From a virus (Duplodnaviria > Heunggongvirae > Uroviricota > Caudoviricetes), in IMG/VR virus record IMGVR_UViG_3300027295_000004: DNA of 64,000 bases; one strand, written 5' to 3'. Under the pieces are notes generated by a model, which did no database searches, was not told where the DNA came from, and saw only the letters and a program-made list of their open reading frames with translations. Shown here one piece after another: positions 26,879-52,012 of this stretch; the stretch's first letter is position 1, and each line of letters starts with the position of its first letter. Position numbers and translations under genes: made by a program.

Positions 26879-26924
26879 AACAAGTTGATAACAACACAAC
26901 CACGTGTTAATATTAACTACACAT

Positions 26925-26999: not shown

Positions 27000-27013
27000 A
27001 TTTCAACATATGT

Positions 27014-27109: not shown

Positions 27110-27127
27110 ATTTCAACGAAAACAAAA

Positions 27128-27451
27128 ATGACTAAAAAAGATCGCAACAAACCCACATATGAGTGGATTGATGTAAATGCTGGTGAAGCATATTACTCTT
27201 TATATGCATATTGTTTAGACAACGCCGATCAACTAAACGGCCATCCTGGAATTCAAATCGGGTGTTATCATTACGCCATCAGCAGAAAGATGACACCAAA
27301 AAAACCATTCAAAGTACATGCTAGGAAAATGAATCAAGGGCATATATGGAGAGGCTGGGGTAGATCTTACATTAAAGTAGATCGCGACATTCAGGTAGAT
27401 AACAAAAAAAGATTCTGGCCTACACACAATCAAATTTCAATAGAAGTTTAA
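27128..27451 (+). CDS. Hypothetical protein (107 aa)
   Basis: ORF 26885-27451 trimmed to the Met at 27128; the upstream part overlaps two tRNAs. Confidence 0.4.
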   Translation: MTKKDRNKPTYEWIDVNAGEAYYSLYAYCLDNADQLNGHPGIQIGCYHYAISRKMTPKKPFKVHARKMNQGHIWRGWGRSYIKVDRDIQVDNKKRFWPTHNQISIEV

Positions 27452-27460
27452 CCTGCACAT

Positions 27461-27535
27461 GCCTCTGTAATTCAATGGTAGAATAACAGACTTTTAATCT
27501 GAAGGTTATGGGTTCGAGTCCCATCGGAGGCACCA
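27461..27535 (+). tRNA. tRNA-Lys (UUU)
   Basis: gcctctg-ta-attc-aatggta-gaat-..-cttttaa-..-atggg-ttcgagt-cccat-cggaggc-a-cca. Confidence 0.6.
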
Positions 27536-27604
27536 ATTTATACAGTCAACGCTCTGATATATTGCTATAGTATATAAGTAATAATTTAATTTAATTTTTA
27601 ATAT

Positions 27605-27679
27605 TCCTCAGTGGCAGACTAGCAATGCACCCGACTGTTAATCGGGATTATGAAGGAGCGTAACCTTCCTGAGGAGCCA
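27605..27679 (+). tRNA. tRNA-Asn (GUU) with an aberrant T-loop (AGCGTAA) and a D-loop without GG
   Basis: Acceptor tcctcag/ctgagga-g-cca; anticodon cccga-ctgttaa-tcggg. Confidence 0.45.
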
Positions 27680-27743
27680 ATTTATAACTGCGATCAAAAC
27701 ACAAAGCAGTTGCTAATAACAACACCCGATGTGAATATATAAC

Positions 27744-27992
27744 ATGAAGAAAACTCAACGCCAATGTGCAGACGACTTAGTCAACTACATCATTCGTAAA
27801 GAACTTATTCACATCAAGTCAGAATATCTTCTTCGCATTGAAAATAGTGAATGGATGGCATGTGGCACAGAGGATAAAACCAGAATTGAAGAATTGCAAC
27901 GGGACATTCAAAGTGCTCGAGAATATATTAGTGTACTGGATGAGTACATCACTAAATTTGAAAAAGTAGAAACCTCGCCATTGTTCAATTAA
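27744..27992 (+). CDS. Hypothetical protein (82 aa)
   Basis: ORF inside the tRNA array. Confidence 0.4.
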   Translation: MKKTQRQCADDLVNYIIRKELIHIKSEYLLRIENSEWMACGTEDKTRIEELQRDIQSAREYISVLDEYITKFEKVETSPLFN

Positions 27993-28280
27993 ATGGAACA
28001 ACTAATAGAACCATTCTGCTACATTGCAAATGTCAAAGTTACAGATAAAAATGGCAAACAAGGGAATAGACCGTTAATTAGATTTCAAGCACCTGACTCG
28101 GGATTAAATTTTAATACTTATTACGTTGCGTGCGCATGTGCTTCTGTATACAACATGTTCCTTGATTATATTGCCGAGAAAGATCAAATAGAATTTGAAA
28201 AACAATTCAAAGAGATATTCAATAAGCTTATCGATGAAGGTCTAATAGAAATCATGAAAGACAAACCAATTTCGGGTTGA
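27993..28280 (+). CDS. Hypothetical protein (95 aa)
   Basis: ORF; its stop overlaps the 5' end of tRNA-Phe. Confidence 0.4.
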   Translation: MEQLIEPFCYIANVKVTDKNGKQGNRPLIRFQAPDSGLNFNTYYVACACASVYNMFLDYIAEKDQIEFEKQFKEIFNKLIDEGLIEIMKDKPISG

Positions 28281-28349
28281 TAGCAATGATGGTTCATGCG
28301 TCTGTCTGAAGAACAGATCATCTCGGTTCGAATCCGAGTCAACCCACCA
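28274..28349 (+). tRNA. tRNA-Phe (GAA)
   Basis: gggttga-ta-..-tctgt-ctgaaga-acaga-tcat-ctcgg-ttcgaat-ccgag-tcaaccc-a-cca. Confidence 0.65.
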
Positions 28350-28354
28350 CTTAT

Positions 28355-28429
28355 GTCGCCGTCGTCTAATGGTTAGGACGGAGGATTTTCATTCCTCAAA
28401 TGGGGGTTCGATTCCCCTCGGCGATACCA
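28355..28429 (+). tRNA. tRNA-Glu (UUC)
   Basis: gtcgccg-t-cgtc-taatggttag-gacg-gagga-ttttcat-tcctc-..-ggggg-ttcgatt-cccct-cggcgat-a-cca. Confidence 0.65.
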
Positions 28430-28439
28430 ATTTCAATAC

Positions 28440-28534
28440 GGAGTGTAAACCAAACAGGCGCGTTGGAACTGTTTGCTAAACAGATTGTGGTTTTGCTAAA
28501 AAGCCATCTGGTTCGAGTCCAGTGCACTCCGCCA
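28440..28534 (+). tRNA. tRNA-Ser (GCU), class II with a long variable arm
   Basis: Acceptor ggagtgt/gcactcc-g-cca; anticodon loop ttgctaa; variable-arm stem ggtttt/aaagcc. Confidence 0.6.
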
Positions 28535-28540
28535 CTTTAT

Positions 28541-28615
28541 TGTCTCGTAGCTCATCGGTAGAGCACTTCCCTGATAAGGAATAGGTAGCTGGTTCGATTC
28601 CAGTCGGGACAACCA
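28541..28615 (+). tRNA. tRNA-Ile (GAU)
   Basis: tgtctcg-ta-gctc-atcggtag-agc-..-ctgataa-..-gctgg-ttcgatt-ccagt-cgggaca-a-cca. Confidence 0.6.
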
Positions 28616-28637
28616 ATTTCAATAACCAATACTAAAA

Positions 28638-28865
28638 ATGAAAAGATATCTTTTGATAGCAGGCCACGACTATTATCCTGGTGCGGGTACAAGCAATTGG
28701 GTTGATTCGTATGATTCATACGAAGAGGCTCTCAATATGGTTGAAACAATGGAAGAAAATAACTACGGTAGGTGTGGTTATACTATTGGAGATATGCCAT
28801 GTGATTGGTATGAAATAGTAGATTTAAACGAATGGAGTCCTCGCAATTCAATTTCAACATATTAA
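28638..28865 (+). CDS. Hypothetical protein (75 aa)
   Basis: ORF. Confidence 0.4.
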   Translation: MKRYLLIAGHDYYPGAGTSNWVDSYDSYEEALNMVETMEENNYGRCGYTIGDMPCDWYEIVDLNEWSPRNSISTY

Positions 28866-28870
28866 ATCCA

Positions 28871-29968
28871 ATGCAAACACTTTACAAATACAGTACCAAA
28901 GGCGCACCTCTTCAGTGGAGCATTGAAGTAGAAGGTGACAAGTATCGAACGATTGAAGGGCAAGTAGGAGGCAAGCTGACTACTTCGCAATGGACTATTT
29001 GTTTCGCAAAGAATGTTGGTAAGGCAAACGCAACTACGGCAGAAGAACAAGCTCTGAAAAAGGCTGAATCTATCTATCGCAAGAAAAAGGACGCCGGATT
29101 CAGCGAGACATTGGAATCATCTGGTGCGAATTTCTTTGAACCGATGCTTGCTCATAAATGGGATCAGCACCCTCTAGCACCTGGTACACCATTGGCTCTT
29201 CAGCCCAAACTAGACGGACATAGATGCATTGCGTATCTTAAAGATGGTAAAGTATATCTCCAAAGTCGAAAGGGCAAACAGATCACTTCATGCACCCATA
29301 TTGAAAATGCTCTTGAAGATTTATTCAAAGAAAATCAATCTTTTATTCTAGATGGTGAGCTTTACAATCATACCATTCCGTTTGAAAAGATTTCGGGGTT
29401 AGTTCGTCAAATTGAACACACTGCGGAATGCAAAGATATTCAATATCATGTTTATGATCTTGTTGATCTAAATAACCGACAACTAACTTTCGACGAAAGA
29501 AATTGGCAATTGGTTACAAAGCAATTACGGCTTTGTAATAATGAGCATATAAACATGGTTACTACATTGTTCGTAAATGGCAGCGATGCTATTGCGGAGT
29601 ATGAAAGTGAGTGTGTGGAAGATGGATATGAAGGTATCATGATTCGTGATACTACATCTATCTATGAGAATAAAAGATCGAAAGGACTTCTGAAACTCAA
29701 ACAATTCCAAGACGAAGAATTCAATATTGTCGAAATCAAAGAAGGTCAAGGTAATCGCACCGGACTAGCCACAGAAGCAGTATTGGCTCTTGAAGACGGT
29801 AGAGCTTTTTCTACTGGAGTTATTGGCAACGAAGAATATGCACGTGGCTTATTTAATGACCGCGAAAAAGTCAAAGGGATGCTAGCCACAGTAAAATACC
29901 AAGGAAAGACTGCACAGGGGATTCCTAGATTTGGTAAAATGAAAATCGTAAGATATGAAGGATTCTAA
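28871..29968 (+). CDS. ATP-dependent DNA ligase
   Basis: Motif I KLDGHR, motif III ILDGELY, motif IV EGIMIRD, motif V LLKLK; start set to the Met at 28871 after the upstream stop. Confidence 0.85.
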   Translation: MQTLYKYSTKGAPLQWSIEVEGDKYRTIEGQVGGKLTTSQWTICFAKNVGKANATTAEEQALKKAESIYRKKKDAGFSETLESSGANFFEPMLAHKWDQHPLAPGTPLALQPKLDGHRCIAYLKDGKVYLQSRKGKQITSCTHIENALEDLFKENQSFILDGELYNHTIPFEKISGLVRQIEHTAECKDIQYHVYDLVDLNNRQLTFDERNWQLVTKQLRLCNNEHINMVTTLFVNGSDAIAEYESECVEDGYEGIMIRDTTSIYENKRSKGLLKLKQFQDEEFNIVEIKEGQGNRTGLATEAVLALEDGRAFSTGVIGNEEYARGLFNDREKVKGMLATVKYQGKTAQGIPRFGKMKIVRYEGF

Positions 29969-29970
29969 GT

Positions 29971-30363
29971 ATGAATATATCTTTTAATCATTTCCATAAA
30001 CTATTATCAGATCCAAGGTTTATAGTAAAATACAAGCATCCTGACTGTACTGATGTTCGGGAGTGTAGATTCAAACAAAACCTTCTTAAATTTTTTAAAG
30101 GCACAAACACTCTGTATGTTGATGCTGATCTGTGGTTTCTGGAAGAATACAACAAAGCAATATCTTATGACGAAGAATCGGGTTCTTTCATTCTTCGCAA
30201 GAAAGAATATGACATGGAAGAAACTGATGAATTTGAAGTAGTCGAGGGGTGGGACGGATATTGTGAAACGAGACCGATTATAAAAGTACTCGACACATGG
30301 AAACTAATTCCGATTACGTTCACATTTTACGCAAGAGCATCAACAAAAGACTTGATAGGCTAA
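29971..30363 (+). CDS. Hypothetical protein (130 aa)
   Basis: ORF. Confidence 0.45.
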   Translation: MNISFNHFHKLLSDPRFIVKYKHPDCTDVRECRFKQNLLKFFKGTNTLYVDADLWFLEEYNKAISYDEESGSFILRKKEYDMEETDEFEVVEGWDGYCETRPIIKVLDTWKLIPITFTFYARASTKDLIG

Positions 30364-30387
30364 CAGCCCCGTTGTATAATTGTTTAC

Positions 30388-30463
30388 GCGGTAGTAGCTC
30401 AATTGGTAGGGCGTCTGACTTCCACTCAGAATGTTGCAGGTTCGAGTCCTGTCTACCGCACCA
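30388..30463 (+). tRNA. tRNA-Gly (UCC)
   Basis: gcggtag-ta-gctcaattggtagggc-g-tctga-cttccac-tcaga-atgtt-gcagg-ttcgagt-cctgt-ctaccgc-a-cca. Confidence 0.65.
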
Positions 30464-30492
30464 CATTCAACCAAATCAACCAAATCAACATA

Positions 30493-30627
30493 ATGGATAT
30501 AGACTCAATTATCACTACAATACCAAAATTGATTTATTTCACAAGCATTGGATTTTTAGTTATATTGTACTTTGCATTGATTATCAAAGCATTGGTTATC
30601 GCACTCGATGCAATCATTGATTTCTAA
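30493..30627 (+). CDS. Small hydrophobic (membrane) protein (44 aa)
   Basis: ORF 30403-30627 trimmed to the Met at 30493 downstream of the tRNA. Confidence 0.3.
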   Translation: MDIDSIITTIPKLIYFTSIGFLVILYFALIIKALVIALDAIIDF

Positions 30628-30630
30628 AAT

Positions 30631-30927
30631 ATGAGTGGAGGGCATTTTGATTACAATCAATTTCGATTGACTGACATTTCGAGGGAAATCATGTCCCTTA
30701 TTAATAGCAATGAAGTTCCAAATGAATTCAGGCAGGCTCGGAAGTATCCTACTGATATTTTAGATAAGTTTGAAGTAGCAATGATTATATTAGATACTGC
30801 TGCAGATATAGTACATCATATCGATTATCTTGTTGAAGGAGATATTGGAGAAGATACATTCAGGGAACTATATAACAAAGCAATCAAGGATTTTTGTACC
30901 AAACTTGCAGAACATCAACTTACTTAA
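30631..30927 (+). CDS. Hypothetical protein (98 aa)
   Basis: ORF. Confidence 0.4.
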   Translation: MSGGHFDYNQFRLTDISREIMSLINSNEVPNEFRQARKYPTDILDKFEVAMIILDTAADIVHHIDYLVEGDIGEDTFRELYNKAIKDFCTKLAEHQLT

Positions 30928-30941
30928 CCTTAAATACTCTT

Positions 30942-31415
30942 ATGCCCACTAACGACCAATCTCTCATCTGTGAAGCGTACGCAGATCAAATCGCATCAAA
31001 TGCATCCGACTCTGAAGAATATTCGATTTTTATCGAAGCAGAACTAACTGCACCAGCGAAGACATCCAAAGCAATTCAAGCATTTGAAAACATTCTCAAA
31101 CGATATGATCGAAATGGTGCAATAGCATTAACTCCCGGGGGTGTATATACACGACCTTCAGGTGACAAGACTGTAGTTGAATATGATGCATATATTAAAC
31201 GAGGGCGAAGATACATCAATCCAGAAGAAGACAATTCGCGTTATCTTCCGTCATATATCGAATCAGCTATCTCTGACTTGTATGATGACCTTGAAGGTTA
31301 TAACGGTACAGATGACATCGAATTGGAAGGCGAAGATGGAGATCCTCCAGAACACGTCTCAAGCTTCGAGATTCCTGGTGAGAGGGTGACTATCAGATAC
31401 GTATTGAGCTACTAA
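30942..31415 (+). CDS. Hypothetical acidic protein
   Basis: ORF 30894-31415 trimmed to the Met at 30942. Confidence 0.4.
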   Translation: MPTNDQSLICEAYADQIASNASDSEEYSIFIEAELTAPAKTSKAIQAFENILKRYDRNGAIALTPGGVYTRPSGDKTVVEYDAYIKRGRRYINPEEDNSRYLPSYIESAISDLYDDLEGYNGTDDIELEGEDGDPPEHVSSFEIPGERVTIRYVLSY

Positions 31416-31506
31416 TTTAAATTTGGCATGGACGACTAGACGGACGCATGTCGAGGATATCCAACATCAGTTCAACTAGTGACTGCGGGAGAGAACCGCA
31501 CAATTT

Positions 31507-31582
31507 GGATGGCGACCCGGCTAGTGAAGGGCTACGTCTGCAAAACGTTTGTTGTTGAGTGCGATTCTCAAGCCATCCTCCA
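31507..31582 (+). tRNA. tRNA-Cys (GCA) with a non-canonical T-loop TGCGATT
   Basis: ggatggc-ga-ccc-ggctagtgaa-ggg-c-tacgt-ctgcaaa-acgtt-tgttg-ttgag-tgcgatt-ctcaa-gccatcc-t-cca. Confidence 0.5.
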
Positions 31583-31709
31583 ATTTTAAAACATGCACAC
31601 TATACATACAACCACTACAAACAATCAATCTAAACAAGAAGAGCCCCAACGCACTTCTTTGATGGTAGCTCCTACTAAATTCTATATTTGGTGTAAAAGC
31701 AAATTCAAC

Positions 31710-31937
31710 ATGGCACTAATTTTAAGCATCGGGTTCCTTTTAGTGCAGGGAGTTAATGGGCAAAATTCTTTTCGATTAAATACATTAGGTTCTGACGGGC
31801 CTGATGGTATTTGTGTGCGGAATGGAAATCAATGGGATTGCTATGGGCAACATATTAGCGCACCCGAACCAACGAACCCAGGAGTCCTGATGACAGCAGC
31901 GGGGGTAGCAGTTATGATGAAAAGAAAGAGGCATTAA
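31710..31937 (+). CDS. Small secreted protein with a PEP-CTERM-like C terminus
   Basis: N-terminal signal peptide MALILSIGFLLVQGVNG; C terminus APEPTNPGVLMTAAGVAVMMKRKRH (PEP motif, TM segment, basic tail). Confidence 0.35.
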   Translation: MALILSIGFLLVQGVNGQNSFRLNTLGSDGPDGICVRNGNQWDCYGQHISAPEPTNPGVLMTAAGVAVMMKRKRH

Positions 31938-32036
31938 TTTCTTTTGATTTTTAAAAAACAAACAATAAGATGTTGATTTAACACACACCACAAAGTATAA
32001 TATAAACGAAGATAACATCTTCAACAAAATCAAATT

Positions 32037-32525
32037 ATGAAAACAAAACTACTATCACTAGTAATGGCACTCGCAACACAAATGGCATTTGCAGGCTCTC
32101 CTGTAACACCTCCAACCCCTGCTACACCAGAAGTTGGATCCACAGGATGGGTTTCAAAGGCATTCACAACTGTGGTCCTTGACAATGGTGATGAAACAGT
32201 CGGTGGAGGTTTGAGTCTTGAAGCTCCAGTTGTAGGCGATCTGAAAGCAGAACTTACTGTTGGTGTAGCAGATGACCTTTATACCGTAGGTGGTAATCTT
32301 CTCTATTACGTCCCCGTAGGAGAGAAGCTTTCTGTATATGGCTTGGCGGGCGGTGCTTATGAATTCGATACAGATCAATGGACCGTACGAACCGGTGGCG
32401 GTCTAAGTTATAGTCTTACTAATACCCTCAATCTGTTTGCAGATGCAACCTACAATTTCCTTGTAGAGAATGATGCCAAGGATGGCGTCGTTGCAATTCG
32501 AGCAGGTGTTGGGTTTAAGTTCTGA
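32037..32525 (+). CDS. Outer-membrane beta-barrel protein (OmpA-N/OmpW-like small barrel)
   Basis: Signal peptide MKTKLLSLVMALATQMAFA; alternating amphipathic beta strands; C-terminal GVGFKF with a terminal Phe. Confidence 0.6.
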   Translation: MKTKLLSLVMALATQMAFAGSPVTPPTPATPEVGSTGWVSKAFTTVVLDNGDETVGGGLSLEAPVVGDLKAELTVGVADDLYTVGGNLLYYVPVGEKLSVYGLAGGAYEFDTDQWTVRTGGGLSYSLTNTLNLFADATYNFLVENDAKDGVVAIRAGVGFKF

Positions 32526-32597
32526 TTATACTGATCTGAATAGGCGAACGCCACCTGGTAAAGTGCGTGACAGCCGGAGAGACGGCCTCGTTAATTT

Positions 32598-32672
32598 GGG
32601 TGGTTCGTATAACGGATAGTACGCAACGCTACGGACGTTGAGACAGGGGTTCGATTCCTCTACTGCCCACCA
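32598..32672 (+). tRNA. tRNA-Arg (ACG)
   Basis: gggtggt-tc-gtat-aacggata-gtac-g-caacg-ctacgga-cgttg-agac-agggg-ttcgatt-cctct-actgccc-a-cca. Confidence 0.65.
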
Positions 32673-32675
32673 TAT

Positions 32676-32749
32676 GCCCAGTTCGTTCAACGGATAGGAC
32701 AGCGGTCTTCTAAACCGCGAATAGAGGTTCGATTCCTCTACTGGGTACC
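32676..32749 (+). tRNA. tRNA-Arg (UCU)
   Basis: gcccagt-tc-gttc-aacggata-ggac-a-gcggt-cttctaa-accgc-gaat-agagg-ttcgatt-cctct-actgggt-a-cca. Confidence 0.6.
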
Positions 32750-32760
32750 ATTTTCCATAT

Positions 32761-32837
32761 AGCCACGTGATGTAATTGGTAAACGTGACGGTCTCAAAAA
32801 CTGTTTTCTATGGGTTCGAGTCCCATCGTGGCTACCA
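32761..32837 (+). tRNA. tRNA with anticodon CAA (Leu-type) but a 5-nt variable loop (class I architecture), A73
   Basis: agccacg-tg-atgt-aattggtaa-acgt-g-acggt-ctcaaaa-actgt-tttct-atggg-ttcgagt-cccat-cgtggct-a-cca. Confidence 0.5.
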
Positions 32838-32838
32838 T

Positions 32839-32915
32839 GCCCTGTGTAGCATATTTAGTTAATGTCTTCGCCTGTGAAGCGAACGAAGATGGTGCAATTC
32901 CATCCCAGGGAACCA
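32839..32915 (+). tRNA. tRNA-His (GUG) with a non-canonical T-loop TGCAATT, D-loop without GG and an imperfect acceptor stem
   Basis: Anticodon ttcgc-ctgtgaa-gcgaa; T-arm gatgg-tgcaatt-ccatc; the 5' g at 32839 may be the His G-1. Confidence 0.45.
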
Positions 32916-33065
32916 ATTCGCGAATAGTTAATGGTATCGTTCGAAAGATACTAAAGACTAACTGAGACCCCCATTTCGAAGTTTATAGGTTGAACACCGC
33001 AGTTAATCGGTGCGGGAGGTGTGTTCGAGTGCACACGATGGATCAGGTCTCGACAATTTACATAT

Positions 33066-33139
33066 GCCCGCATAGCCCAATCGGTAGAGGCACTTGACTT
33101 AGGATCAAGAGGTTGGGGGTTCGAATCCCTCTGCGGGTA
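33066..33139 (+). tRNA. tRNA with anticodon UAG (Leu-type) but a 5-nt variable loop, A73, no encoded CCA
   Basis: gcccgca-ta-gcc-caatcggtaga-ggc-a-cttga-cttagga-tcaag-aggtt-ggggg-ttcgaat-ccctc-tgcgggt-a. Confidence 0.5.
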
Positions 33140-33147
33140 CTTTTTAT

Positions 33148-33228
33148 GGGAGTGTTAGCGTAGCGGCCGAACGCACCAGTTTTACACACTGGCAATCATC
33201 ACAGGTTCGAATCCTGTCGCTCCTACCA
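33148..33228 (+). tRNA. tRNA-Val (UAC) with an 8-nt variable region
   Basis: Acceptor gggagtg/cgctcct-a-cca; anticodon ccagt-tttacac-actgg; T-arm acagg-ttcgaat-cctgt. Confidence 0.55.
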
Positions 33229-33234
33229 TTTCAT

Positions 33235-33311
33235 GGCTATATGACGTAATTGGTAAACGTATTGCATTGAGGATGCAAGTTTTGCAGGTTCGAGTCCTGT
33301 TATAGCCACCA
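33235..33311 (+). tRNA. tRNA with anticodon GAG (Leu-type) but a 5-nt variable loop, A73
   Basis: ggctata-tg-acgt-aattggtaa-acgt-a-ttgca-ttgagga-tgcaa-gtttt-gcagg-ttcgagt-cctgt-tatagcc-a-cca. Confidence 0.55.
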
Positions 33312-38827: not shown

Positions 38828-41035
38828 ATGCTCGATAAACATTACATGAAAGACATTTTAGTCAAAAAACGGACAGGAGATACAGAAATTTTCGATGCAG
38901 AAAAGGCCAATAGAATGGTCTACCATGCAACAAAAGGCGTAGCAGGAGCATCAGCAATTGATATTCTTATGAATGCCAAGATTAACTTCTACGATGGCAT
39001 CACCTCAGCGGAAATTCAAGACTCATTGGTTAAGTCAGCAGAAGATCTTATTTCTTTAGAAAATCCAAATTATTCAATTGTAGCCGCACGGCTTTTGGTA
39101 TATGGCCTTCGTAAAGAAGTGTGGGGTGGTAATACACCACCAAGACTATATGACCACATCAAGAAATGTGTAGACCTCGGAGTCTATACAGATGAGCTAA
39201 TTAACAAGTTCAGTGAAGAAGAGATCAATAAGATTGGCAGTTATATTGACCACGAAAGAGACGAGACTATGTTCGATTTTGCTGGCATGAAGCATCTCGT
39301 GCGCACTGGCTTAGTTCAAGATCGAGTCAATCATAAAGTATATGAGACTCCTCAATTTGCGTTCATGTGTATTGGTATGTCTCACTATGCAAATTATGAA
39401 TCCAAGAAACGGATTCAATATATCCGCCAATTCTATGACGATGTATCTGAGCGTCGTTTGAATATACCAACACCAATGCTTACAAGATGGAGAACCCCCG
39501 TTAAGACAGGTGCATCTTGTTGCTTGATTCAAGTCGATGATACGGCAGACTCGATCTTTTCGTCTGCGCATATTATGGCGAGGGCTACCAGTTATGGATA
39601 TGGCATTGGATTAGATTTCGGCAAGATTCGTGGTGTTGGGTCTCCTGTTAAGAATGGCGAGACTATTCATGGTGGGGTTATTCCATATCTCAAAGTGTTC
39701 CAAGATGCGATCAAGTCTCAGCAACAAGGTGGTGCTAGACGTGGTGCCGGTACAGCCAATGCACCTATTTTCCATTGGGAGATTGAATCTATTCTCCAAT
39801 TGCGAAATGTTGGTGGTACCGAATATAATCGTGTAAGACATCTTGACTATGTAATTGGTATTTCTAAAATCTTCTATGAACGCTGGAATGAAGGCGGAAA
39901 CATTACTCTATTCTCGAATCATGAGGTTCCTGAATTATTTGATTCGTTTGGTATGCCTGAATTTGACGAGCTTTATCTCAAGGCAGAAGCAAACCCAGAG
40001 ATTAAATTTAAAAAGTCTATTCCTGCAGATGATATCTTTGATTCTTTGATCAAAGAAAGAATCGAAACGAACAGAATTTATATTCTTAATATCGATCTTG
40101 CTAATGATTTTTCTCCATGGACTGAGCGTGTCAACATGACGAATCTTTGTGTAGAAATCCTACAACCAACGAAACCATGTCAATCCCTAGATGATCCTAA
40201 TGGTGAAATTGGTACGTGTTTGCTTGCGGCGGTCAATATGCTCAATATCAGATCGGCAAATGAACACCGTGAGGTATGCCATCAGGCCGTACGCATGCTA
40301 GATGATATGGTAGATCGCCAATTATACTTTGCACCTGCTGCCGAAAGATTCACTAAGAATAAAAGATCGCTTGGTATTGGCATTACTAATCTAGCAGGAT
40401 GGTTAGCGACACAAGGCTTGAATCATGATTCACCAGAAGCACCTAATGCTATCGATGAGTTCATGGAACGCCAGCAATATTACCTAATGGAGGCATCTTG
40501 GTTGCTTGCCAAAGAAAAGGGACCAGCGCCTGACTGGTCTAAATCCAAATACGCTCAAGGATATTCCAAGCTTGATCTATACAAGAAGGATGTGGATGAA
40601 TTTATTACCAGAAAGCCTTCAATGGACTGGGATGCCCTGATGTCAAATATTCGTCGTGACGGCATGAGAAACATGACGGTCTCCTCACAGATGCCGTGCG
40701 AAAAGTGCCTAAAATGGGATACCAAAGTCTTTGTTGATGGCAAACCTATGAACTTCCATGAAATTTGCGAACAACTTGGGTTTTCGTGGAAGAATATTGA
40801 AATGCATGATATGAAAGGCTGGCATGAGTCTGATAAAACTATTACACTCGAAACAAAAGACGGGCCGGTTGAGACGAATAGAATTTATTACAATGGCACT
40901 AGCGAAGTATTTGATATTGAGCTTGAAAATGGTGATATTATCAAAGCGACTAAAGATCATAGATTCCTGACCAAGGATGGGTGGAAGACAGTGGAAGAAC
41001 TTTCAGTTGACGAAGAAATTATGGAAATCGAATAA
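38828..41035 (+). CDS. nrdA: Ribonucleotide reductase class I alpha subunit, N-terminal extein (to 40705) fused to the split-intein N-fragment (IntN, 40706-41032)
   Basis: ATP-cone at the N terminus, catalytic NLCVEI, ..SSQMPCEK then CLKWDTKVFVDG (intein block A) and EVFDIELENGDIIKATKDHRFLTKDG, closely resembling DnaE-type IntN. Confidence 0.85.
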   Translation: MLDKHYMKDILVKKRTGDTEIFDAEKANRMVYHATKGVAGASAIDILMNAKINFYDGITSAEIQDSLVKSAEDLISLENPNYSIVAARLLVYGLRKEVWGGNTPPRLYDHIKKCVDLGVYTDELINKFSEEEINKIGSYIDHERDETMFDFAGMKHLVRTGLVQDRVNHKVYETPQFAFMCIGMSHYANYESKKRIQYIRQFYDDVSERRLNIPTPMLTRWRTPVKTGASCCLIQVDDTADSIFSSAHIMARATSYGYGIGLDFGKIRGVGSPVKNGETIHGGVIPYLKVFQDAIKSQQQGGARRGAGTANAPIFHWEIESILQLRNVGGTEYNRVRHLDYVIGISKIFYERWNEGGNITLFSNHEVPELFDSFGMPEFDELYLKAEANPEIKFKKSIPADDIFDSLIKERIETNRIYILNIDLANDFSPWTERVNMTNLCVEILQPTKPCQSLDDPNGEIGTCLLAAVNMLNIRSANEHREVCHQAVRMLDDMVDRQLYFAPAAERFTKNKRSLGIGITNLAGWLATQGLNHDSPEAPNAIDEFMERQQYYLMEASWLLAKEKGPAPDWSKSKYAQGYSKLDLYKKDVDEFITRKPSMDWDALMSNIRRDGMRNMTVSSQMPCEKCLKWDTKVFVDGKPMNFHEICEQLGFSWKNIEMHDMKGWHESDKTITLETKDGPVETNRIYYNGTSEVFDIELENGDIIKATKDHRFLTKDGWKTVEELSVDEEIMEIE

Positions 41036-41084
41036 TCTACCCAATTTAGTTGCCATAATGCGATAAGTAAAATCTATACGCATT

Positions 41085-42173
41085 ATGGCAACTAAACGTT
41101 CTAATCTAAAGAGTAGTATTATCGATTTTTTAAATGCATTTTCATCGAATATAAATGCCAAAAAAGATGTAGATGAATTATATGGCGAGGGATTTCAAGG
41201 CAAAACTATAAAAGTTTTCGCAATGGCGATAAAAGACAAATGGTCAAAAGATGGATTTTACAAATGGAATACCCGAGTCAAATATTGTCTTCAAAACAAA
41301 ATTCCGGTTATGTATGATCCACTCACAGCATCTCTCAAATTCGGTATTACATTAATTGAAGCGGAATTAAAAATAGCCAATTTAAAATCTCAAAAGACTA
41401 CATCTTTAGAAGGGTTTTGTGCGAGACACGGCAAAGAAAAAGGCGAAGCATTATTTAAAAAATTTCAGTTGTCAAGCAAGAAATCCTCAGTTAATATATT
41501 GAATGAGTATAAACAAAAATATCCACATACATGGAAATGTGAATATAGTAATTACATGCGCCGCAAATCCAAATGGTGCAAAGAGTATTATTTGTCAAGA
41601 CAAGATTGCACCGAAGAGGAAGCTAGTAAATTAGCACGAGAATACTATTTTCAAAAGTGTGGGCTACTGAGCTCTGTATATTACGACAAAGGGTATACGG
41701 ATGAGGATATTGATATTATTTTGGAAAAAATAAATGCCAAACGTATATTCAACAACACAAGAAACCCAACCAATCTCCAACGCATATTTGGTGATGAATG
41801 GCTTGCACATCATCAAGAGATTAATAATAAGTTAAGAGAGACAATGGAAAAAAAAGGTGTGTGGCTAACTCTTGACAAATTAGATGACTGGAAGAAATAC
41901 AAAATGGAAGTAGGATTTTGGACATCCCAATCAATCAATGATAATGAAGTACTTTTTGAAAAAAGAAGCAAGGAATATCATGTAGACCATCGATATTCAC
42001 AGAAGCAAGGATATATAAACGACATATCACCGAGAGTGATTGGGTCTGTTGTCAATTTAGAAATTTTAGAGAGATCAAAAAATTGTTCAAAACAAAGCAA
42101 GTCAAGCATCAGTATTGACGAATTGTATAAAATATATAACGAATATGAAAATCAACAGAATAACAAAATCTAA
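41085..42173 (+). CDS. Free-standing HNH homing endonuclease inserted between the two nrdA/intein halves
   Basis: C-terminal EYHVDHRYSQKQGYINDISPRVIGSVVNLEILERSKNCSK (HNH motif); in a different frame from both nrdA halves. Confidence 0.6.
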   Translation: MATKRSNLKSSIIDFLNAFSSNINAKKDVDELYGEGFQGKTIKVFAMAIKDKWSKDGFYKWNTRVKYCLQNKIPVMYDPLTASLKFGITLIEAELKIANLKSQKTTSLEGFCARHGKEKGEALFKKFQLSSKKSSVNILNEYKQKYPHTWKCEYSNYMRRKSKWCKEYYLSRQDCTEEEASKLAREYYFQKCGLLSSVYYDKGYTDEDIDIILEKINAKRIFNNTRNPTNLQRIFGDEWLAHHQEINNKLRETMEKKGVWLTLDKLDDWKKYKMEVGFWTSQSINDNEVLFEKRSKEYHVDHRYSQKQGYINDISPRVIGSVVNLEILERSKNCSKQSKSSISIDELYKIYNEYENQQNNKI

Positions 42174-42708
42174 CGAAATTTGTCCAACGTACGACGTAGA
42201 ATCTCCAAATGTCCATTCTTATGTAATCGACTCGGGAAAAAGCAAGATTATATCGCACAATAGTTCTTTAACCCAGAATTCGACTAATGGTATGGAACCA
42301 ATTGTCAGTCTCTTCCAATTCAAAGATGATCGTCAAGGAAGTGCGGCATGGATTGCACCAGGTGCAAAGAAATACGGTAAGTATTATAAATCGGCGTATG
42401 ATTGTACAAATGAAGGAATTATCAAATGTGCTGCAGCTATTACGAAATGGCTGTGCATGGCCGCTAGTACCAATCATTACTACAACTACGGCAATTATGA
42501 GAATAATAAACTTGAAACTACAGACGTTGCGTATGATATTCTTTTATCATACAAATACGGTCTGAAGACTCTTTATTATGCGAAGAACAAACAAATAGTC
42601 TCAGCAGACACAAGTCTTGCTGCGGAAGAAGTCTCAGAAAATGATACATCAGAAAAAGCCGAGTCTTCGGACGATTCTGGATGTGCTACCGGATTTTGCT
42701 CACTATGA
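42145..42708 (+). CDS. nrdA: Split-intein C-fragment (IntC, 39 aa, 42145-42261) fused to the nrdA C-terminal extein
   Basis: MKINRITKSNEICPTYDVESPNVHSYVIDSGKSKIISHN followed by +1 Ser; extein SSLTQNSTNGMEP... continues the conserved NrdA segment (MPxExSSxxSNxTNGxEP), then a C-terminal Cys pair. Confidence 0.8.
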   Translation: MKINRITKSNEICPTYDVESPNVHSYVIDSGKSKIISHNSSLTQNSTNGMEPIVSLFQFKDDRQGSAAWIAPGAKKYGKYYKSAYDCTNEGIIKCAAAITKWLCMAASTNHYYNYGNYENNKLETTDVAYDILLSYKYGLKTLYYAKNKQIVSADTSLAAEEVSENDTSEKAESSDDSGCATGFCSL

Positions 42709-43772
42709 AAAGCGTATACAACAAATCTAATATTCCACCACATGAACGTAAAATGTTCTTAGGACCTGAACTCAACCTACAACGGTTCGATGTTTTCAAG
42801 TATAAGAAATTTTATGATTTATATCAAGATCAAAAGTCTGCATTCTGGAATCCAGAGGAGATTGATTTTTCTGGCGAAGCGTCGAAAATTGACACAATGA
42901 GTGCTACAGAGAAATGGATCTTTGAGAATAATCTAATGTGGCAAACGGCAACAGACTCAGTGCTGAGCAGAGGCATTAATGAAATTACCAAATACATTAC
43001 GCTACCTGAATTGGAAGCAGCCTGTTCGTATTGGCAATTCTGTGAAGTTCTTCATAGTGAATCTTATACGCATGCGCTTAAAGGCCTTACCAAGAAGCCA
43101 GAGGAATTTTTTGACTCAATCGTAGTCAATGAAGAAATCAATAAGAGATCTGTCGAAGTAACTAAAGCATTTGATGATCTTTTAGGCACCAAAGATTCGG
43201 ATAGAAATGTTCAAGAGCAAATCTTTAAGACTGTTTTGTCAACGCAGATTGCAGAAGGACTTAATTTTCATGTATCGTTCCTGTTCTCCTTCTGGTTTGG
43301 CAAACAAGGAAAGGCACCTCAAATGGCGAAAATTATTCGCCTGATCAATAAAGATGAATCGCTTCACGTTGCAATTACGCAAAACATCATCAAGCTTTGG
43401 AAGACCAATCCAGATGAAGGTTTCCAAGACCTAGTAGAAAAGAATACTGACTTGGTTTATGAGATGTATAAAACGGCAGTTCAATGTGAAAAGGATTGGG
43501 CTAGCTATTTGTTCTCAAAGGGCAGTTTGATTGGATTCAATGAGGAGAATGTACACCAATATATCGAATGGTTGGCGAATAACCGACTTTCGAGTTTGGG
43601 CTATGAAAAGATTTTTGCTAGCAAGAAAAATCCAATCGGTTCTTGGTTAGTCGAATATCTCGACCCAACTCTATCACAATCAGCTCCACAGGAACAAAAT
43701 CTTACTACATACCAAATCGGTAGTCGGAATAGTACTATTGATAAGTCCCGTTTAAAGAAAATCGCCCTGTAA
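42705..43772 (+). CDS. nrdB: Ribonucleotide reductase class I beta subunit
   Basis: FWNPEEIDFS, CEVLHSESY and DESLHV di-iron ligand motifs; its ATG overlaps the nrdA stop (ATGA). Confidence 0.85.
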   Translation: MKSVYNKSNIPPHERKMFLGPELNLQRFDVFKYKKFYDLYQDQKSAFWNPEEIDFSGEASKIDTMSATEKWIFENNLMWQTATDSVLSRGINEITKYITLPELEAACSYWQFCEVLHSESYTHALKGLTKKPEEFFDSIVVNEEINKRSVEVTKAFDDLLGTKDSDRNVQEQIFKTVLSTQIAEGLNFHVSFLFSFWFGKQGKAPQMAKIIRLINKDESLHVAITQNIIKLWKTNPDEGFQDLVEKNTDLVYEMYKTAVQCEKDWASYLFSKGSLIGFNEENVHQYIEWLANNRLSSLGYEKIFASKKNPIGSWLVEYLDPTLSQSAPQEQNLTTYQIGSRNSTIDKSRLKKIAL

Positions 43773-45231: not shown

Positions 45232-45687
45232 TTACTTACACGTATTATCCAAATCTTTATCTGTGATGATAATAAATTTCATGCCGTACTTGTTTGCAAA
45301 GCCTTTTGCTGCTTCCCATTTGGCATTGTTTACCACCCATGTTGCATGCTCATGAATGATAGTTGATTCTTTTTTCTTTTTAGTAATAGTAGGCTGAATG
45401 GTTTGCTTATAAGGCTTGATTTCAATGAGGTATTTGCAGATCTTATCGCGTTCGCGGACTTTAACGTACATATCGACGATATAACGATGAACTGCATTAT
45501 CAATAGGAGAAACGTACGGGACTATCACATTCTCAGAGCCCCATTCAATGACATTGGCGTTCTTATCACACCAGATCATAAATTTTCTTTCCAGAAAACT
45601 ACGGTAGATAATATTACCAGAGTTTGTGCACTTCGCCCTGTTAAGTGGTTTATATACTCCTTGTTTGAATTGTGCGTATTTTTTCAT
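45232..45687 (-). CDS. Hypothetical protein, possibly a PD-(D/E)xK-fold nuclease
   Basis: IVDMYV...YLIEIKP gives a D...E-x-K arrangement. Confidence 0.4.
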   Translation of the reverse strand: MKKYAQFKQGVYKPLNRAKCTNSGNIIYRSFLERKFMIWCDKNANVIEWGSENVIVPYVSPIDNAVHRYIVDMYVKVRERDKICKYLIEIKPYKQTIQPTITKKKKESTIIHEHATWVVNNAKWEAAKGFANKYGMKFIIITDKDLDNTCK

Positions 45688-49396: not shown

Positions 49397-52012
49397 TTAC
49401 ACGGGCGTCGGGGTAGGTGTCGGCGACGGTGATGTAGTTACTTCTACTGATGTGTATCCGCCAGGACCAACCTCATTTACTGCGCGGACGTAAATCGTGT
49501 ATACACCATAGCTTCCTACATCAATAAGTAGAGGAGGTTCAGTCTCCACTGCATCTGTCCAAATTGTATAAGGATCAAGTGGATCACTTAGTGTGTATTG
49601 GTATATTGTGATCGGCGATCCGCCATCATATGGTACTGTGAAGTAAAGTGCAGCTAAAGTATTGCTAGTATCGTATGTTATTGACGGTATCGTCGTTGGG
49701 ATTGTAGGCACAATTGGTACAATTGGTACAACTGGCGTGGCTGTTGGTGTGGCGGTTGGCGTAATCAAGACATCATTGCAATACGAGTTATATGTTGCGC
49801 TATCGATGATAGTAGTATTTCCTGTTGTCAGGGTTATGATGGTAGCGATATCTGAGCGCAATCCATATGTAACGGCGTAATATTCACCGTTATAAATAAG
49901 ATACTGACCGCTGTATACAAATCCATCTGCTGCATCTACCCCGTATTTGATAGTAGAGCCGCACATTTGCATAACTAAAATTTCACCACAATCACCAAAT
50001 CCAACACTAGCATTGGTTATAGTTGCTGGATATAATGTAACCGGACCGATATAAGCAATTGAATCTGTTTCTTCTCCGTATAATTGGTTTCTTGAACCTC
50101 TCAATGTTTTGCGATACCTTTTAAACTCGACTTCAATTTCAAAATAGAGATTATTTTCTTTTAGGTATGTATCGGTCTCTGATGCAGTTTTACCCATTAC
50201 AATGGATGCTAATTCGTCTAATTGATCGTTTGCAAAATTAAACCACGAATCCCCTACATACCATTCATCTAATATTTTCGAATAATTTTCAACATAGTTA
50301 AAATTCCAGCTTCTTGATTTTTGGGCATCAGCGGCAAATGTTTGTGAGCTTAATACATTAGCAACGGCAATATTCCAAAATGAATATCTGCGCTTACATG
50401 TTTCTACTGGCTTATTAGTATAGTTGATATTAGGACGAACATAATACTCGGCACCTCTAACGCTGTAATCAGGCAGTGCAGATACAGAGAATAGAACAGT
50501 GGCTTGTTTTATTTTTTCGCCTGCTTGATATTCTGGTAATTCATATCCATATTGATATACATCTATTATGGTGACATTTTCAATCAACTGGGATGTTTGA
50601 GGAACTATCGACACATAATAGTAATTTCGATTATCGAGATTGATATATACGACAGATCCTAGATATGGTTTGAGTAATGGATTCTTAGAATACAATACAG
50701 TCTTTGATGTATTAAAACACGACGGTGTTAATTTGTAAAGCAGTGTATCTTTAGGTTTTGGGATTTCTTGTGAATTACAATCTTCATAAAGATCTACAAC
50801 AGTATACTCTTCTGTTATCTGCTGATTATCGTAAACTACCTTTTCAATATACCATCTTACTCCTGGATACTCTGCAAGAGTAACAGCCTTGCCTGGGATT
50901 AAAATGCGTTTATTATCAATGACAAATAATTCTTTTCGAAGAGTTCCGTTAACAACATCTGGGCATGGCTGATATTTCCAACAGCAATTTGTCAATTTGA
51001 TTATAACGGGTGCTGCTCTATTGATTCTATATTCACACCCACATTCGCAATCTTCAGATGATGCTACTACAGTCCAGTCACCAGCAAGACCATCTATTTG
51101 CACTGTAGTATCAGATCCAGCATAAAATTGGAATTCATCATTTGTTGCTACGATTTTTTCCTGAGTAAACGTATTGGTTAGGATATAACAAGTATCACTA
51201 CAACCTTTCTTTGTTGTGAAAATAGGATTAAGATTTGTAGTGATTGCTTTATCTGCAACCGATACTTTACTTACTAAGAATCTTTGATCTGGGTATTTGT
51301 CCAGAACAACCCCAAGACCTACTAAATGGCTATAATCATTAGATGAATAAAAAGCAAGACCAGGAACTGAACAAGATGCAAATTTATAATAATAGCTAAA
51401 ACCTTCTGGTTCTGGTTCACAAACCTCAATGACGGACTCTGGGCAATAAAAAGGATTCATTGTAGGCCAGTATTCCCATTTGAGTATGGGGTATCCTGTC
51501 TTGATAAATCGACCCATTAAGAATCTTTCGTTATTGTTAACCGCATTAAATTTGGATACAAAATACGGTGCCAGGATAGGATTCGGTCTATTTGTTTCAT
51601 CTGCATATTGTCTTAATGCAAATACATATAAATCATTCAAACGGCAGTCTGCAGATTCTGCTGGAAACGTAGTTTCGAGCCATTTTGAAATAGTTGTTGC
51701 GAAGGTGGACCGGTCTGTTATTTTGATTGGGCAAAATACTGTTACAGGCTTTACTGCGAAACATGAAGTCGATCTGGTTATCGACACCATATCGTTTAAC
51801 GATTTGTATTTTTCTTTACCTGTAGATGTATCAAGCAAATATGCAGTTGTTGCTACAATATCCTGCAGAATCGGAACAGCTTCAGATATTTTTTTTGTCT
51901 GTGTGTATATAACACCCGTTTGTTTATCTATCCACTTAAAATGATCATTGATAAGCACAATGGCCGAACCTGCGCTTTCAGTGTCTTTAATTTGTGGATA
52001 CGAACATGACAT
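49397..52012 (-). CDS. Virion structural protein (871 aa) with a C-terminal Pro/Thr linker and fibronectin-III-like domain
   Basis: TPTATPTATPVVPIVPIVPT linker; Fn3-like C terminus. Confidence 0.5.
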   Translation of the reverse strand: MSCSYPQIKDTESAGSAIVLINDHFKWIDKQTGVIYTQTKKISEAVPILQDIVATTAYLLDTSTGKEKYKSLNDMVSITRSTSCFAVKPVTVFCPIKITDRSTFATTISKWLETTFPAESADCRLNDLYVFALRQYADETNRPNPILAPYFVSKFNAVNNNERFLMGRFIKTGYPILKWEYWPTMNPFYCPESVIEVCEPEPEGFSYYYKFASCSVPGLAFYSSNDYSHLVGLGVVLDKYPDQRFLVSKVSVADKAITTNLNPIFTTKKGCSDTCYILTNTFTQEKIVATNDEFQFYAGSDTTVQIDGLAGDWTVVASSEDCECGCEYRINRAAPVIIKLTNCCWKYQPCPDVVNGTLRKELFVIDNKRILIPGKAVTLAEYPGVRWYIEKVVYDNQQITEEYTVVDLYEDCNSQEIPKPKDTLLYKLTPSCFNTSKTVLYSKNPLLKPYLGSVVYINLDNRNYYYVSIVPQTSQLIENVTIIDVYQYGYELPEYQAGEKIKQATVLFSVSALPDYSVRGAEYYVRPNINYTNKPVETCKRRYSFWNIAVANVLSSQTFAADAQKSRSWNFNYVENYSKILDEWYVGDSWFNFANDQLDELASIVMGKTASETDTYLKENNLYFEIEVEFKRYRKTLRGSRNQLYGEETDSIAYIGPVTLYPATITNASVGFGDCGEILVMQMCGSTIKYGVDAADGFVYSGQYLIYNGEYYAVTYGLRSDIATIITLTTGNTTIIDSATYNSYCNDVLITPTATPTATPVVPIVPIVPTIPTTIPSITYDTSNTLAALYFTVPYDGGSPITIYQYTLSDPLDPYTIWTDAVETEPPLLIDVGSYGVYTIYVRAVNEVGPGGYTSVEVTTSPSPTPTPTPV

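Follow-up and report, generated by a model that had tools for sequence, protein, structure and literature searches.

How a phage could obtain an intact NrdA, the partner of NrdB in ribonucleotide reductase (RNR), from a gene that lies in two pieces is the question raised by the nrdA locus of a 64,000-nucleotide stretch of Caudoviricetes DNA (IMGVR_UViG_3300027295_000004; hereafter, the window). We consider it likely that the locus is a mobile fractured nrdA, in which the NrdA halves are joined by protein trans-splicing and the product of a gene lying between them mediates homing. According to this model, three proteins would be expressed: NrdA(1–626) fused to the N-terminal intein half (IntN), an endonuclease, and the C-terminal intein half (IntC) fused to the C-terminal 148 aa of NrdA. 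The acidic IntN would associate with IntC and undergo class-1 protein trans-splicing, proceeding through a Cys1 thioester, Ser+1 attack and Asn39 cyclisation, and the resulting seamless full-length NrdA would then pair with NrdB.

Three ORFs at the nrdA locus

The locus comprises three ORFs on the plus strand, each in a different frame. ORF1 (38,828–41,035; 735 aa) begins with a 626-aa nrdA N-extein (38,828–40,705), which takes in the ATP-cone, the all-alpha domain and the greater part of the barrel, and ends in ..SSQMPCEK, the final Lys corresponding to Thr624 of E. coli R1. Residues 1–625 matched the Pfam families ATP-cone, Ribonuc_red_lgN and Ribonuc_red_lgC, followed by Intein_splicing. 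The remainder of ORF1 is IntN (109 aa and a TAA stop; 40,706–41,035), identified through TIGR01445, a match to the intein structure 1MI8 and an alignment of nine lineages. ORF2, a free-standing endonuclease-like gene of 362 aa (41,085–42,173), was recognized from PHROG 5104 and an AlphaFold2 (AF2) model. ORF3 was listed with a TTG start at 42,115; the ATG at 42,145 ('MKINRIT'), 29 nt within the 3' end of ORF2, is the start that aligns in 9/9 lineages, and we therefore place ORF3 at 42,145–42,708. It consists of IntC (39 aa; 42,145–42,261), delimited by the same nine-lineage alignment, and a C-extein of 148 aa plus stop (42,262–42,708), which opens with Ser+1 (E. coli R1 Ser625; 'SSLTQNSTNGMEP..'), matches PF02867 at positions 458–522 and closes with the C-terminal CxxC tail. 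The NCBIfam model PRK09103 (761 positions) is covered at positions 3–624 by ORF1 and at ~625–759 by ORF3. Directly downstream lies an intact nrdB, encoding the RNR small subunit (42,681–43,772, plus strand; PF00268, E = 3.7e-51; gene order as in the related lineage L003), the true start of which is probably a later ATG near 42,705.

A preliminary description of this DNA had placed the three ORFs and both intein halves, 109 aa of IntN from Cys627 and 39 aa of IntC ending in ..ISHN, just as we find them. It had also set the extein junction at the conserved MPxE(K/T)|SS segment; the window reads MPCEK|SS, and the NrdA sequence spliced in silico aligned with E. coli R1 without a gap across Thr624|Ser625 (K−1 = T624, S+1 = S625). 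Its reading of a fractured gene, with the N-part of nrdA and IntN, an endonuclease-like gene in another frame, and IntC and the C-part of nrdA, is likewise borne out, the two parts of nrdA lying in adjacent, co-oriented ORFs that keep the original order, as defined for fractured genes (Dassa et al. 2009). No match emerged when the locus was compared with phage records by megablast, or from tblastn of a neighbouring 870-aa ORF; the phage itself is thus without a close cultured relative.

The default alternative to three genes is a single contiguous intein with a nested in-frame endonuclease, broken up by an assembly or sequencing artefact or read through by programmed recoding, and in-frame HNH-containing inteins do exist. 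However, no fewer than 8 independent metagenome contigs and 4 cultured-phage genomes share the three-ORF layout, as does every independent assembly (JGI, NCBI, ENA, Logan) alongside the finished phage genomes, and the layout is therefore not a sequencing artefact; a search for related loci returned only contigs already known. The relative frames of the ORFs also vary among lineages, for example between two cassettes of 94% identity (1,2,0 versus 1,1,2), which means that a shared frameshift could not join them. Moreover, a conserved hairpin and stop codons lie in the spacer, and a conserved ATG of its own opens the endonuclease ORF. With the layout recurring and the frames varying, the continuous ORF that the preliminary description had entertained is excluded as far as computation allows, and we regard this extremely improbable alternative as effectively refuted.

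Conserved splicing residues in divergent intein halves

IntN begins with Cys1 in 'CLKWDT' (Cys627; nt 40,706), carries 'TKDH' in block B and has a net charge of −12, while IntC reads 'MKINRITK..TYDVES..VHSYV..IISHN'. Together they hold all class-1 residues: C627, T-K-D-H, the block-F Asp of 'YDVE', 'SHN' and S+1. Across the nine lineages, Cys1, TxxH, the block-F Asp, His-Asn and Ser/Thr+1 were invariant (9/9) at an identity of only ~27–35%, and the alignment thus supports the intein motifs noted in the preliminary description. ORF1 scored 30.6 bits against TIGR01445 (intein_Nterm; cut-off 24.5). The fused halves reached 36.6 against Pfam Intein_splicing (PF14890; cut-off 35.8), compared with only 28.5 for ORF1 alone, and matched the Ssp DnaB mini-intein 1MI8 (E = 2e-9) and Npu DnaE inteins. 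Judged by these sequence scores, the intein signal is well above chance, and we infer that the halves are active in splicing. An AF2 model of the IntN–IntC fusion, made without an alignment, had a pLDDT of 40, and a word-indexed protein search with the IntN profile retrieved one protein only. Moorella phage MTATph1, the best tblastn match of IntN, was set aside as a counterpart: its intein is contiguous, lies at the thiyl-radical site and represents another allele.

We compared the window intein with the split inteins gp41-1 and Npu DnaE. The canonical split position is common to all three, with an IntN of ~90–110 aa and an IntC of 35–40 aa, as are Cys1, TxxH/SxxH and the terminal His-Asn; gp41-1 also shares Ser+1. 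Identity to these two was only 24–29%, and unlike in them, block G is preceded by three extra residues (GKS) in the subgroup to which the window intein belongs. The halves would add to the natural Cys1/Ser+1 split inteins a family of no fewer than 9 divergent pairs, which are candidate orthogonal tools for protein ligation.

N-extein residue −3 is Cys in the window and five related lineages (MPC-E-K|C1), forming a CxxC with the catalytic Cys1, whereas it is Ser in intein-less relatives and E. coli (MPSES|SS, MPSET|SS). The Cys(−3)–Cys1 disulfide of the P. abyssi MoaA intein reportedly acts as a 'redox trap', blocking splicing at its first step. Redox gating of RNR trans-splicing is, in our estimation, unlikely; if it did operate, assembly of the phage RNR, which is itself thiol-dependent, would be tied to how reducing the infected cell is, and a selfish cassette would serve as a post-translational switch.

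The middle gene, its hairpin and transfer of the cassette

ORF2 is a member of PHROG 5104, which was matched by 51 of the 52 members of its alignment, and combines a helical N-terminal region with a C-terminal nuclease module. The AF2 model (pLDDT 94.4) is mostly helical, with a predicted beta-beta-alpha-metal (His-Me/HNH-like) nuclease core at residues ~294–340 (41,964–42,104, plus strand) that contains 'YHVDH' (D301, H302), N324, N333 and K336. D301-H302, N324 and N333 were invariant in 52/52 sequences, and supply the His of catalytic type that closes strand 1 and the Asn metal or structural ligands, an 'HNN' pattern like that of I-HmuI. Internal repeats in the N-terminal region were weak in ORF2 itself, and approximately half of the family had at least 2 copies of a helical module.

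Sequence searches were less informative. ORF2 matched no Pfam or NCBIfam HNH model at E ≤ 0.1, none of the 52 aligned members matched an HNH family, and searches of Pfam, NCBIfam and PDB sequences, with ORF2 alone or with the 52-sequence profile, yielded nothing meaningful. By sequence, then, ORF2 belongs to no Pfam HNH family. Foldseek of the model gave nothing significant in the PDB, and in BFVD only uncharacterised phage proteins and DUF7487. Assignment of ORF2 as a Hef endonuclease was rejected (BLASTP against NCTC12673 Hef73, E = 0.42; Hef71, E = 0.15). The preliminary description had called this a free-standing HNH gene: it is indeed a separate ORF in another frame, while the term 'HNH' is supported by conserved motif and predicted fold only. 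The profile search found 2,197 representatives at E ≤ 1e-3, and PHROG 5104, with ~2,200 representative clusters (50% identity) annotated as 'unknown function' or 'hypothetical protein', thereby gains a functional hypothesis and candidate catalytic residues.

The proposed nuclease (His-Me finger, HNH-like, 'DH..N..N'), whose helical N-terminal region is a probable DNA-binding part, would cut intein-less nrdA alleles during co-infection, and repair of the cut allele would copy the whole IntN–endonuclease–IntC cassette into it. We also weighed the possibility that ORF2 is a domesticated or degenerate DNA-binding protein and that the cassette is kept by vertical descent only, as might be argued from the mostly helical model and the lack of sequence-level membership of known nuclease families. 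Against this stand the invariance of catalytic-type residues in 52 diverse members and an ORF2 dN/dS of 0.061. Relatives of ORF2 also occupy positions typical of free-standing endonucleases (the gp18–gp19 gap, a tRNA cluster and beside nrdB). Furthermore, one relative has a cassette 93% identical to this one, with a flanking nrdA that is only 71–79% identical; the high-identity block has sharp edges and corresponds to the cassette, and cassette and extein divergence are discordant in both directions. This footprint indicates recent lateral transfer of the cassette, and we give a degenerate ORF2 little credence.

The spacer between IntN and ORF2 encodes an RNA hairpin (41,045–41,096, plus strand; dG −27.2 kcal/mol) with an 18-bp stem in which 41,045–41,062 pairs with 41,079–41,096, such that the ORF2 ATG (41,085–41,087) lies inside the 3' arm. 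Its z-score was −8.2, none of 200 shuffles was equally stable, and the loop carries a conserved ATAAGTA (ATAAGTA / TATAAATA-like). Counterparts with diverged sequences cover the ATG and/or the Shine-Dalgarno in seven lineages (L003, L007, L009, L015, L016, L017 and L018), and a stable hairpin over the ORF2 start was found in all lineages that possess a spacer. ORF2 thus has control elements of its own, an ATG and a conserved hairpin, as fractured genes do, and the hairpin probably delays translation of the endonuclease or holds it low. Rfam at the gathering threshold detected only tRNAs in the whole window, and we accordingly rejected the presence of any group I intron, or of another RNA of known type, at the locus; a scan for consensus promoters and terminators gave nothing decisive.

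Comparison with split nrdA genes of other phages

The intein allele of the window recurs at an identical site in Campylobacter phages CP21 and WX1 and in the Klebsiella Alcyoneusvirus phages KP13-7 and phiKp_21. A homologous endonuclease separates its halves there (27–42% identity over aligned parts), and these cassettes are orthologous to that of the window. Unlike in the window, their endonuclease ORF overlaps IntN, and in KP13-7 and WX1 the thiyl site is occupied by a further split intein; the spacer hairpin was not found in these last two phages, which were the ones examined for it. The middle genes of all four are annotated only as 'hypothetical protein'. 'Two inteins' have been mentioned in a Campylobacter phage nrdA, without description of a fractured arrangement (PMC3322345). 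The nrdA mini-intein of Campylobacter phage NCTC12673 (Fletchervirus) shares the insertion site of the window and is collinear with, and 31% identical to, the fused halves; in contrast to them it forms one continuous polypeptide and lacks an endonuclease gene, presumably a state before invasion or after endonuclease loss. All evolutionary stages are represented at one site: intein-less allele, contiguous mini-intein (NCTC12673), split intein with endonuclease, and a free-standing homologue beside nrdAB.

Multiply interrupted Campylobacter phage nrdA has been interpreted as degenerating (Dwivedi et al. 2013; PMC3653736), and the N-terminal part of NCTC12673 nrdA, adjoining Hef genes, appears disrupted. 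By analogy, the window locus could be a decaying pseudogene broken by selfish elements in a phage that relies on host RNR. However, both exteins are full length and seamless relative to E. coli R1, extein dN/dS was 0.056–0.075, which shows purifying selection, nrdB is intact, and the arrangement has been maintained over deep divergence, all of which make decay very unlikely. In Campylobacter and Klebsiella jumbo phages, too, nrdA genes that lie in fragments and were earlier read as degenerating may be functional fractured genes rather than pseudogenes.

The nrdA-a/mobE/nrdA-b locus of Aeromonas phage Aeh1 resembles the window in that the nrdA of a T4-like phage is interrupted by a free-standing gene of HNH type (Friedrich 2007; Crona 2011) and that this endonuclease gene overlaps the part of nrdA that follows it (PMC3045599). 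In contrast to the window, it contains no intein: its break falls between C439 and C462, and short tails on the parts mediate their non-covalent assembly (PMC3045599). Fold similarity between the two endonucleases was weak (Foldseek E = 0.46). Since the tails of this functional split NrdA are essential, and its authors proposed that they could be intein remnants (PMC3045599), the window fragments might also assemble non-covalently, with the intein halves as mere interaction tails. Yet the Aeh1 tails have no intein similarity, whereas those of the window are intein halves at T624|S625. In addition, invariant splicing nucleophiles and helper residues across nine lineages at 27–35% identity would be unexpected for binding alone, and ~150 added residues at a break within the conserved MPxE|SS..NG.EP would probably disturb function. 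We therefore consider non-covalent assembly quite unlikely and favour trans-splicing.

The preliminary description had likened the locus to the fractured genes of marine metagenomes, a comparison that holds for the general layout and fails for the insertion site and endonuclease family. [quoted passage not shown] The GOS inteins lie immediately before the thiyl-radical Cys (E. coli C439) and have Cys+1, and the endonucleases are GIY-YIG or Vsr-like (PMC2677866), whereas the window has its insertion at T624|S625 with Ser+1, an intact thiyl-radical site (..TNLCVEI..) and a putative HNH-like His-Me-finger protein of PHROG 5104. The locus is thus a genuine fractured gene in the sense of Dassa et al. 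2009, at a different nrdA site and with a different endonuclease family. HNH genes that fracture other genes were predicted in that study and none was observed (PMC2677866); the window supplies the predicted case, a free-standing gene of apparent HNH type that fractures an intein-containing gene.

Layout of the nrdA locus and its phage background

The preliminary description proposed a fractured nrdA at 38828-42708, and the locus does consist of three ORFs on the + strand in three different frames (ORF calls). Over residues 1-625, ORF1 (38828-41035, +, 735 aa) encodes an ATP-cone followed by the all-alpha and barrel domains of RNR (Pfam); an intein N-terminal splicing region comes next. In alignment with relatives, the 109-aa intein N-half (IntN) runs from nt 40706, starting at Cys627 with 'CLKWDT' and ending at the TAA. 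A 49-nt spacer precedes ORF2 (41085-42173, +, 362 aa; ORF call). ORF3 (+) extends to 42708 from a listed TTG start at 42115; the ATG at 42145 ('MKINRITK') aligns in all relatives and opens the 39-aa intein C-half (IntC), which ends ..IISHN; a Ser and 147 more NrdA residues come after it. nrdB (Pfam, +) comes directly after nrdA; its mechanical ORF start at 42681 lies inside the nrdA end and, since relatives begin nrdB just past the nrdA stop, the ATG near 42705 (MKSVYNK..) is probably where the gene truly begins.

The three-ORF layout recurs in contigs of the JGI, NCBI, ENA and Logan assemblies and in four finished phage genomes, those of KP13-7 and phiKp_21 (Klebsiella) and of WX1 and CP21 (Campylobacter). 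The IntC ATG sits 11-29 nt inside the ORF2 3' end in every lineage. Relative ORF frames vary by lineage (1,2,0 in the window versus 1,1,2 in the related metagenome contig L003, with IntN-ORF2-IntC cassettes 94% identical), so no common frameshift or readthrough yields one ORF. Artefact or recoding is hardly credible, being excluded by the independent assemblies and variable frames, which equally dispose of a continuous ORF with a nested endonuclease.

The source phage is large; no near relative was found among 50,697 phage records, and its NrdA shares at most 49% identity with cyanophage NrdA. It also encodes DNA ligase, RNA ligase and PhoH. ARAGORN called 29 tRNA genes, one at 9295-9370 (-) and 28 within 24966-33311 (+), a region that also contains several ORFs, including the DNA ligase gene; Rfam confirmed 25 tRNA matches, including one at 27605-27676 that is absent from the ARAGORN calls. 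The tRNA set is near-complete, and its tRNA-Ile(tat) at 27014-27109 is, at 96 nt, unusually long for a tRNA-Ile. No PHROG matched the 2490-aa giant ORF (55325-62797, -) or its neighbours (53116-55389, -, 757 aa; 49397-52012, -, 871 aa), and tblastn of the 871-aa ORF gave no match in any phage record. In L003, a gene beside phoH (13667-14119) encodes a Tn7 TnsA-like N-terminal (endonuclease) domain; a 151-aa ORF of the window (45232-45687, -) is syntenic with it.

Intein halves and splice junction

ORF1 scored 30.6 bits against TIGR01445 (cut-off 24.5). Fused IntN+IntC reached 36.6 against Pfam Intein_splicing (gathering score 35.8) and matched the Ssp DnaB mini-intein 1MI8 (E=2.3e-9) as well as the sequences of solved Npu and Ssp DnaE intein and RecA mini-intein structures. 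Joined in silico, the exteins align gap-free with E. coli R1 over the junction (..lmpset/ssqisnatngiep..; slashes in such motifs mark splice junctions), thus placing the intein between the Thr624 and Ser625 equivalents, with no NrdA sequence missing or duplicated. We compared nine independent pairs of halves at T624/S625 (window, contigs L003, L007, L015, L016, L017 and L018, KP13-7 and WX1), with contig L009 as a tenth lineage represented by IntN only. Identity to the window intein goes down to ~27-35%, and Cys1, block-B Thr..His, block-F Asp and Tyr, the terminal His-Asn and the +1 Ser/Thr are invariant across lineages. The 109-aa IntN, the 39-aa IntC followed by Ser+1, the junction within the conserved MPxE/SS segment and the intein block motifs, all anticipated in the preliminary description, are borne out by these alignments.

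IntN is acidic in every lineage (net charge -8 to -13), and the basic first residues of IntC (MKIxKIxK) stand opposite an acidic IntN tail (..ELxxDDDIxEI). Comparing the window with L003 gave dN/dS values of 0.047 (IntN) and 0.035 (IntC). Judged by sequence, invariant residues with such low values are the pattern that selection for splicing would predict, and not that of a mere interaction tail; non-covalent assembly of the NrdA fragments is unlikely in the face of invariant splicing nucleophiles. Still less likely is a pseudogene, as the exteins are seamless and under purifying selection. The intein is real and looks competent.

The -3 residue of the N-extein is Cys (MPCEK/C, window 40697-40708) in the window, L003, L007, L009, L015 and L016 and Ser in intein-less NrdAs; Cys(-3)-Glu-Lys/Cys1 forms a CxxC motif over the N-splice junction. 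In the P. abyssi MoaA intein, the trapping N-extein Cys is said, after work by Callahan in 2011, to lie at -3. There, an N-extein Cys-Cys1 disulfide traps the precursor under oxidising conditions (PMC10663303). The CxxC at the nrdA junction could be a redox trap for splicing; redox-gated RNR assembly, a speculative and rather unlikely reading, would be of interest if true.

The middle gene, its start site and cassette mobility

ORF2 matched nothing in Pfam, NCBIfam or the PDB sequences, whether searched alone or as a profile of 52 sequences; its family is PHROG 5104, annotated 'unknown function'. An exhaustive HMMER search recovered 2197 representative proteins at E<=1e-3 (613 at E<=1e-10), and the module shared by its relatives is the C-terminal ~100 residues. 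D301, H302, S305, N324, N333 and K336 are invariant in the 52-sequence alignment and are carried by the motif 'YH(L/V)DH..S.K.GF......IIGS..NL.I.....N..K'. The AlphaFold2 model from this alignment is confident (pLDDT 94.4); its first 290 residues are helical, and a strand-strand-helix unit at the C-terminus bears the invariant residues. Two family members also touch the PHROG of endonuclease VII, likewise a His-Me-finger enzyme. From the motif and the predicted fold, we therefore call ORF2 a putative His-Me-finger (HNH-like, 'HNN' variant) nuclease, which offers a predicted function for a large nuclease family so far unannotated. Of the free-standing HNH gene originally proposed, the separate ORF in another frame stands; the HNH label applies by motif and predicted fold, with no membership in curated HNH sequence families. 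Comparison with the Hef proteins of Campylobacter phage NCTC12673 led us to reject ORF2 as Hef.

ORF2 is under purifying selection (dN/dS 0.061). Distant relatives lie in the gp18-gp19 interval of T-even-like coliphages, inside a cluster of tRNA genes in a Vibrio jumbo phage and, in a marine contig, on the downstream side of nrdB next to an intein-less nrdA, positions that are classic for free-standing homing endonucleases. In L015 (5283-6803), a DUF723 gene and then a Cas12f1-like_TNB (TnpB-like) gene come after nrdB; the latter may be another mobile nuclease beside the RNR operon.

The IntN-ORF2 spacer holds an 18-bp hairpin (41045-41096, dG -27.2 kcal/mol, z -8.2) with the ORF2 ATG within its 3' arm. 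A strong hairpin covers the ATG and/or Shine-Dalgarno in 7/7 other lineages having the spacer (z -3.5 to -8.1), and is kept despite unrelated sequence (for example, 3' arms 'GGAGGG' in L017 and 'AGGAGG' in L018). The loops hold ATAAGTA, and that of L015 holds the exact TATAAATA, the T4 late-promoter consensus. By analogy with T4 I-TevI and Aeh1 mobE, we infer hairpin control of translation of the putative nuclease: read-through transcripts would leave it untranslated, and late transcripts beginning inside the hairpin would expose its start site. Dassa et al. (PMC2677866) reported hairpins upstream of their endonuclease genes.

Divergence follows opposite patterns in two comparisons. Against L003, the exteins share 83% amino acid identity (dS about 2), whereas IntN, ORF2 and IntC share 94-96% (dS 0.36-0.6); against L009, the N-extein shares 97%, but IntN 83% and ORF2 61%. 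In 150-nt sliding windows, nucleotide identity to L003 is 71-79% over the N-extein, 93% in the 150 nt from 40703 (intein start, 40706) and 85-96% until about 42200, then drops via 83% to 60-70%. Such a block of discordant ancestry, which matches the cassette and trails briefly into the 3' extein, is what homing with co-conversion would be expected to leave. N-extein identity to L009 (38701-40700) is mosaic, at 98-100% over 39376-39900 and ~84% in the 700 nt immediately upstream of the intein, which suggests an older co-conversion tract adjoining the cassette. With the catalytic-type motif invariant and this transfer footprint in place, an inactive ORF2 is improbable.

Relation to known fractured genes

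In Campylobacter phage NCTC12673 the same nrdA site is occupied by a contiguous mini-intein (155 aa) that is collinear with the fused halves; the split point maps exactly between its ..EIVSIT and IKIKSI.., the loop where nested endonucleases normally sit. Cyanophage NrdA provides intein-less alleles of the site (MPSES/SS). The four states at one site (intein-less, contiguous mini-intein, split intein with endonuclease, and free-standing homolog beside nrdAB) map onto steps I to III of the Dassa et al. 2009 gene-breaking model (PMC2677866).

The middle genes of the Campylobacter and Klebsiella phage nrdA loci are deposited as hypothetical proteins. One paper noted 'two inteins' in a Campylobacter phage nrdA (PMC3322345) and another read Campylobacter phage nrdA genes as degenerating (PMC3653736). 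KP13-7 and WX1 have in the same nrdA a second, Dassa-type split intein at the thiyl-radical site (NLC/C...HN/CE; 1295-3759 in KP13-7, 7-2269 in WX1), with an intervening ORF that looks GIY-YIG-like by eye in KP13-7 and two hypothetical ORFs in WX1. The KP13-7 nrdA shows further breaks upstream, with an extra ORF at 712-1098. The uvsW of Salmonella phage S16, a cultured T4-like phage, is apparently another fractured gene (2164-4890 of record L020): gp114 ends with an intein N-half in the DECH box (..MMNDE/CFDGDTL..), gp114.1 (291 aa) carries the annotation 'hypothetical protein', and gp115 starts with IntC (..ALAHN/CH). The Aeh1 mobE split (PMC3045599) differs from the window in lacking an intein and in its site.

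A 2025 survey listed only Vsr-like endonucleases in split-intein contexts, and Dassa et al. (PMC2677866) explicitly predicted that HNH genes could fracture genes. The match to known marine fractured genes proposed earlier holds for the arrangement, which is their 'fractured gene', but not for its particulars. Their NrdA examples are inserted just before the thiyl-radical Cys, have a +1 Cys and carry a GIY-YIG or Vsr-like endonuclease, whereas the window has T624/S625, a +1 Ser and an endonuclease of another family. The finding is real and correctly interpreted; with a good set of comparative data behind it, it is a variant of the known fractured-gene arrangement without a new principle.
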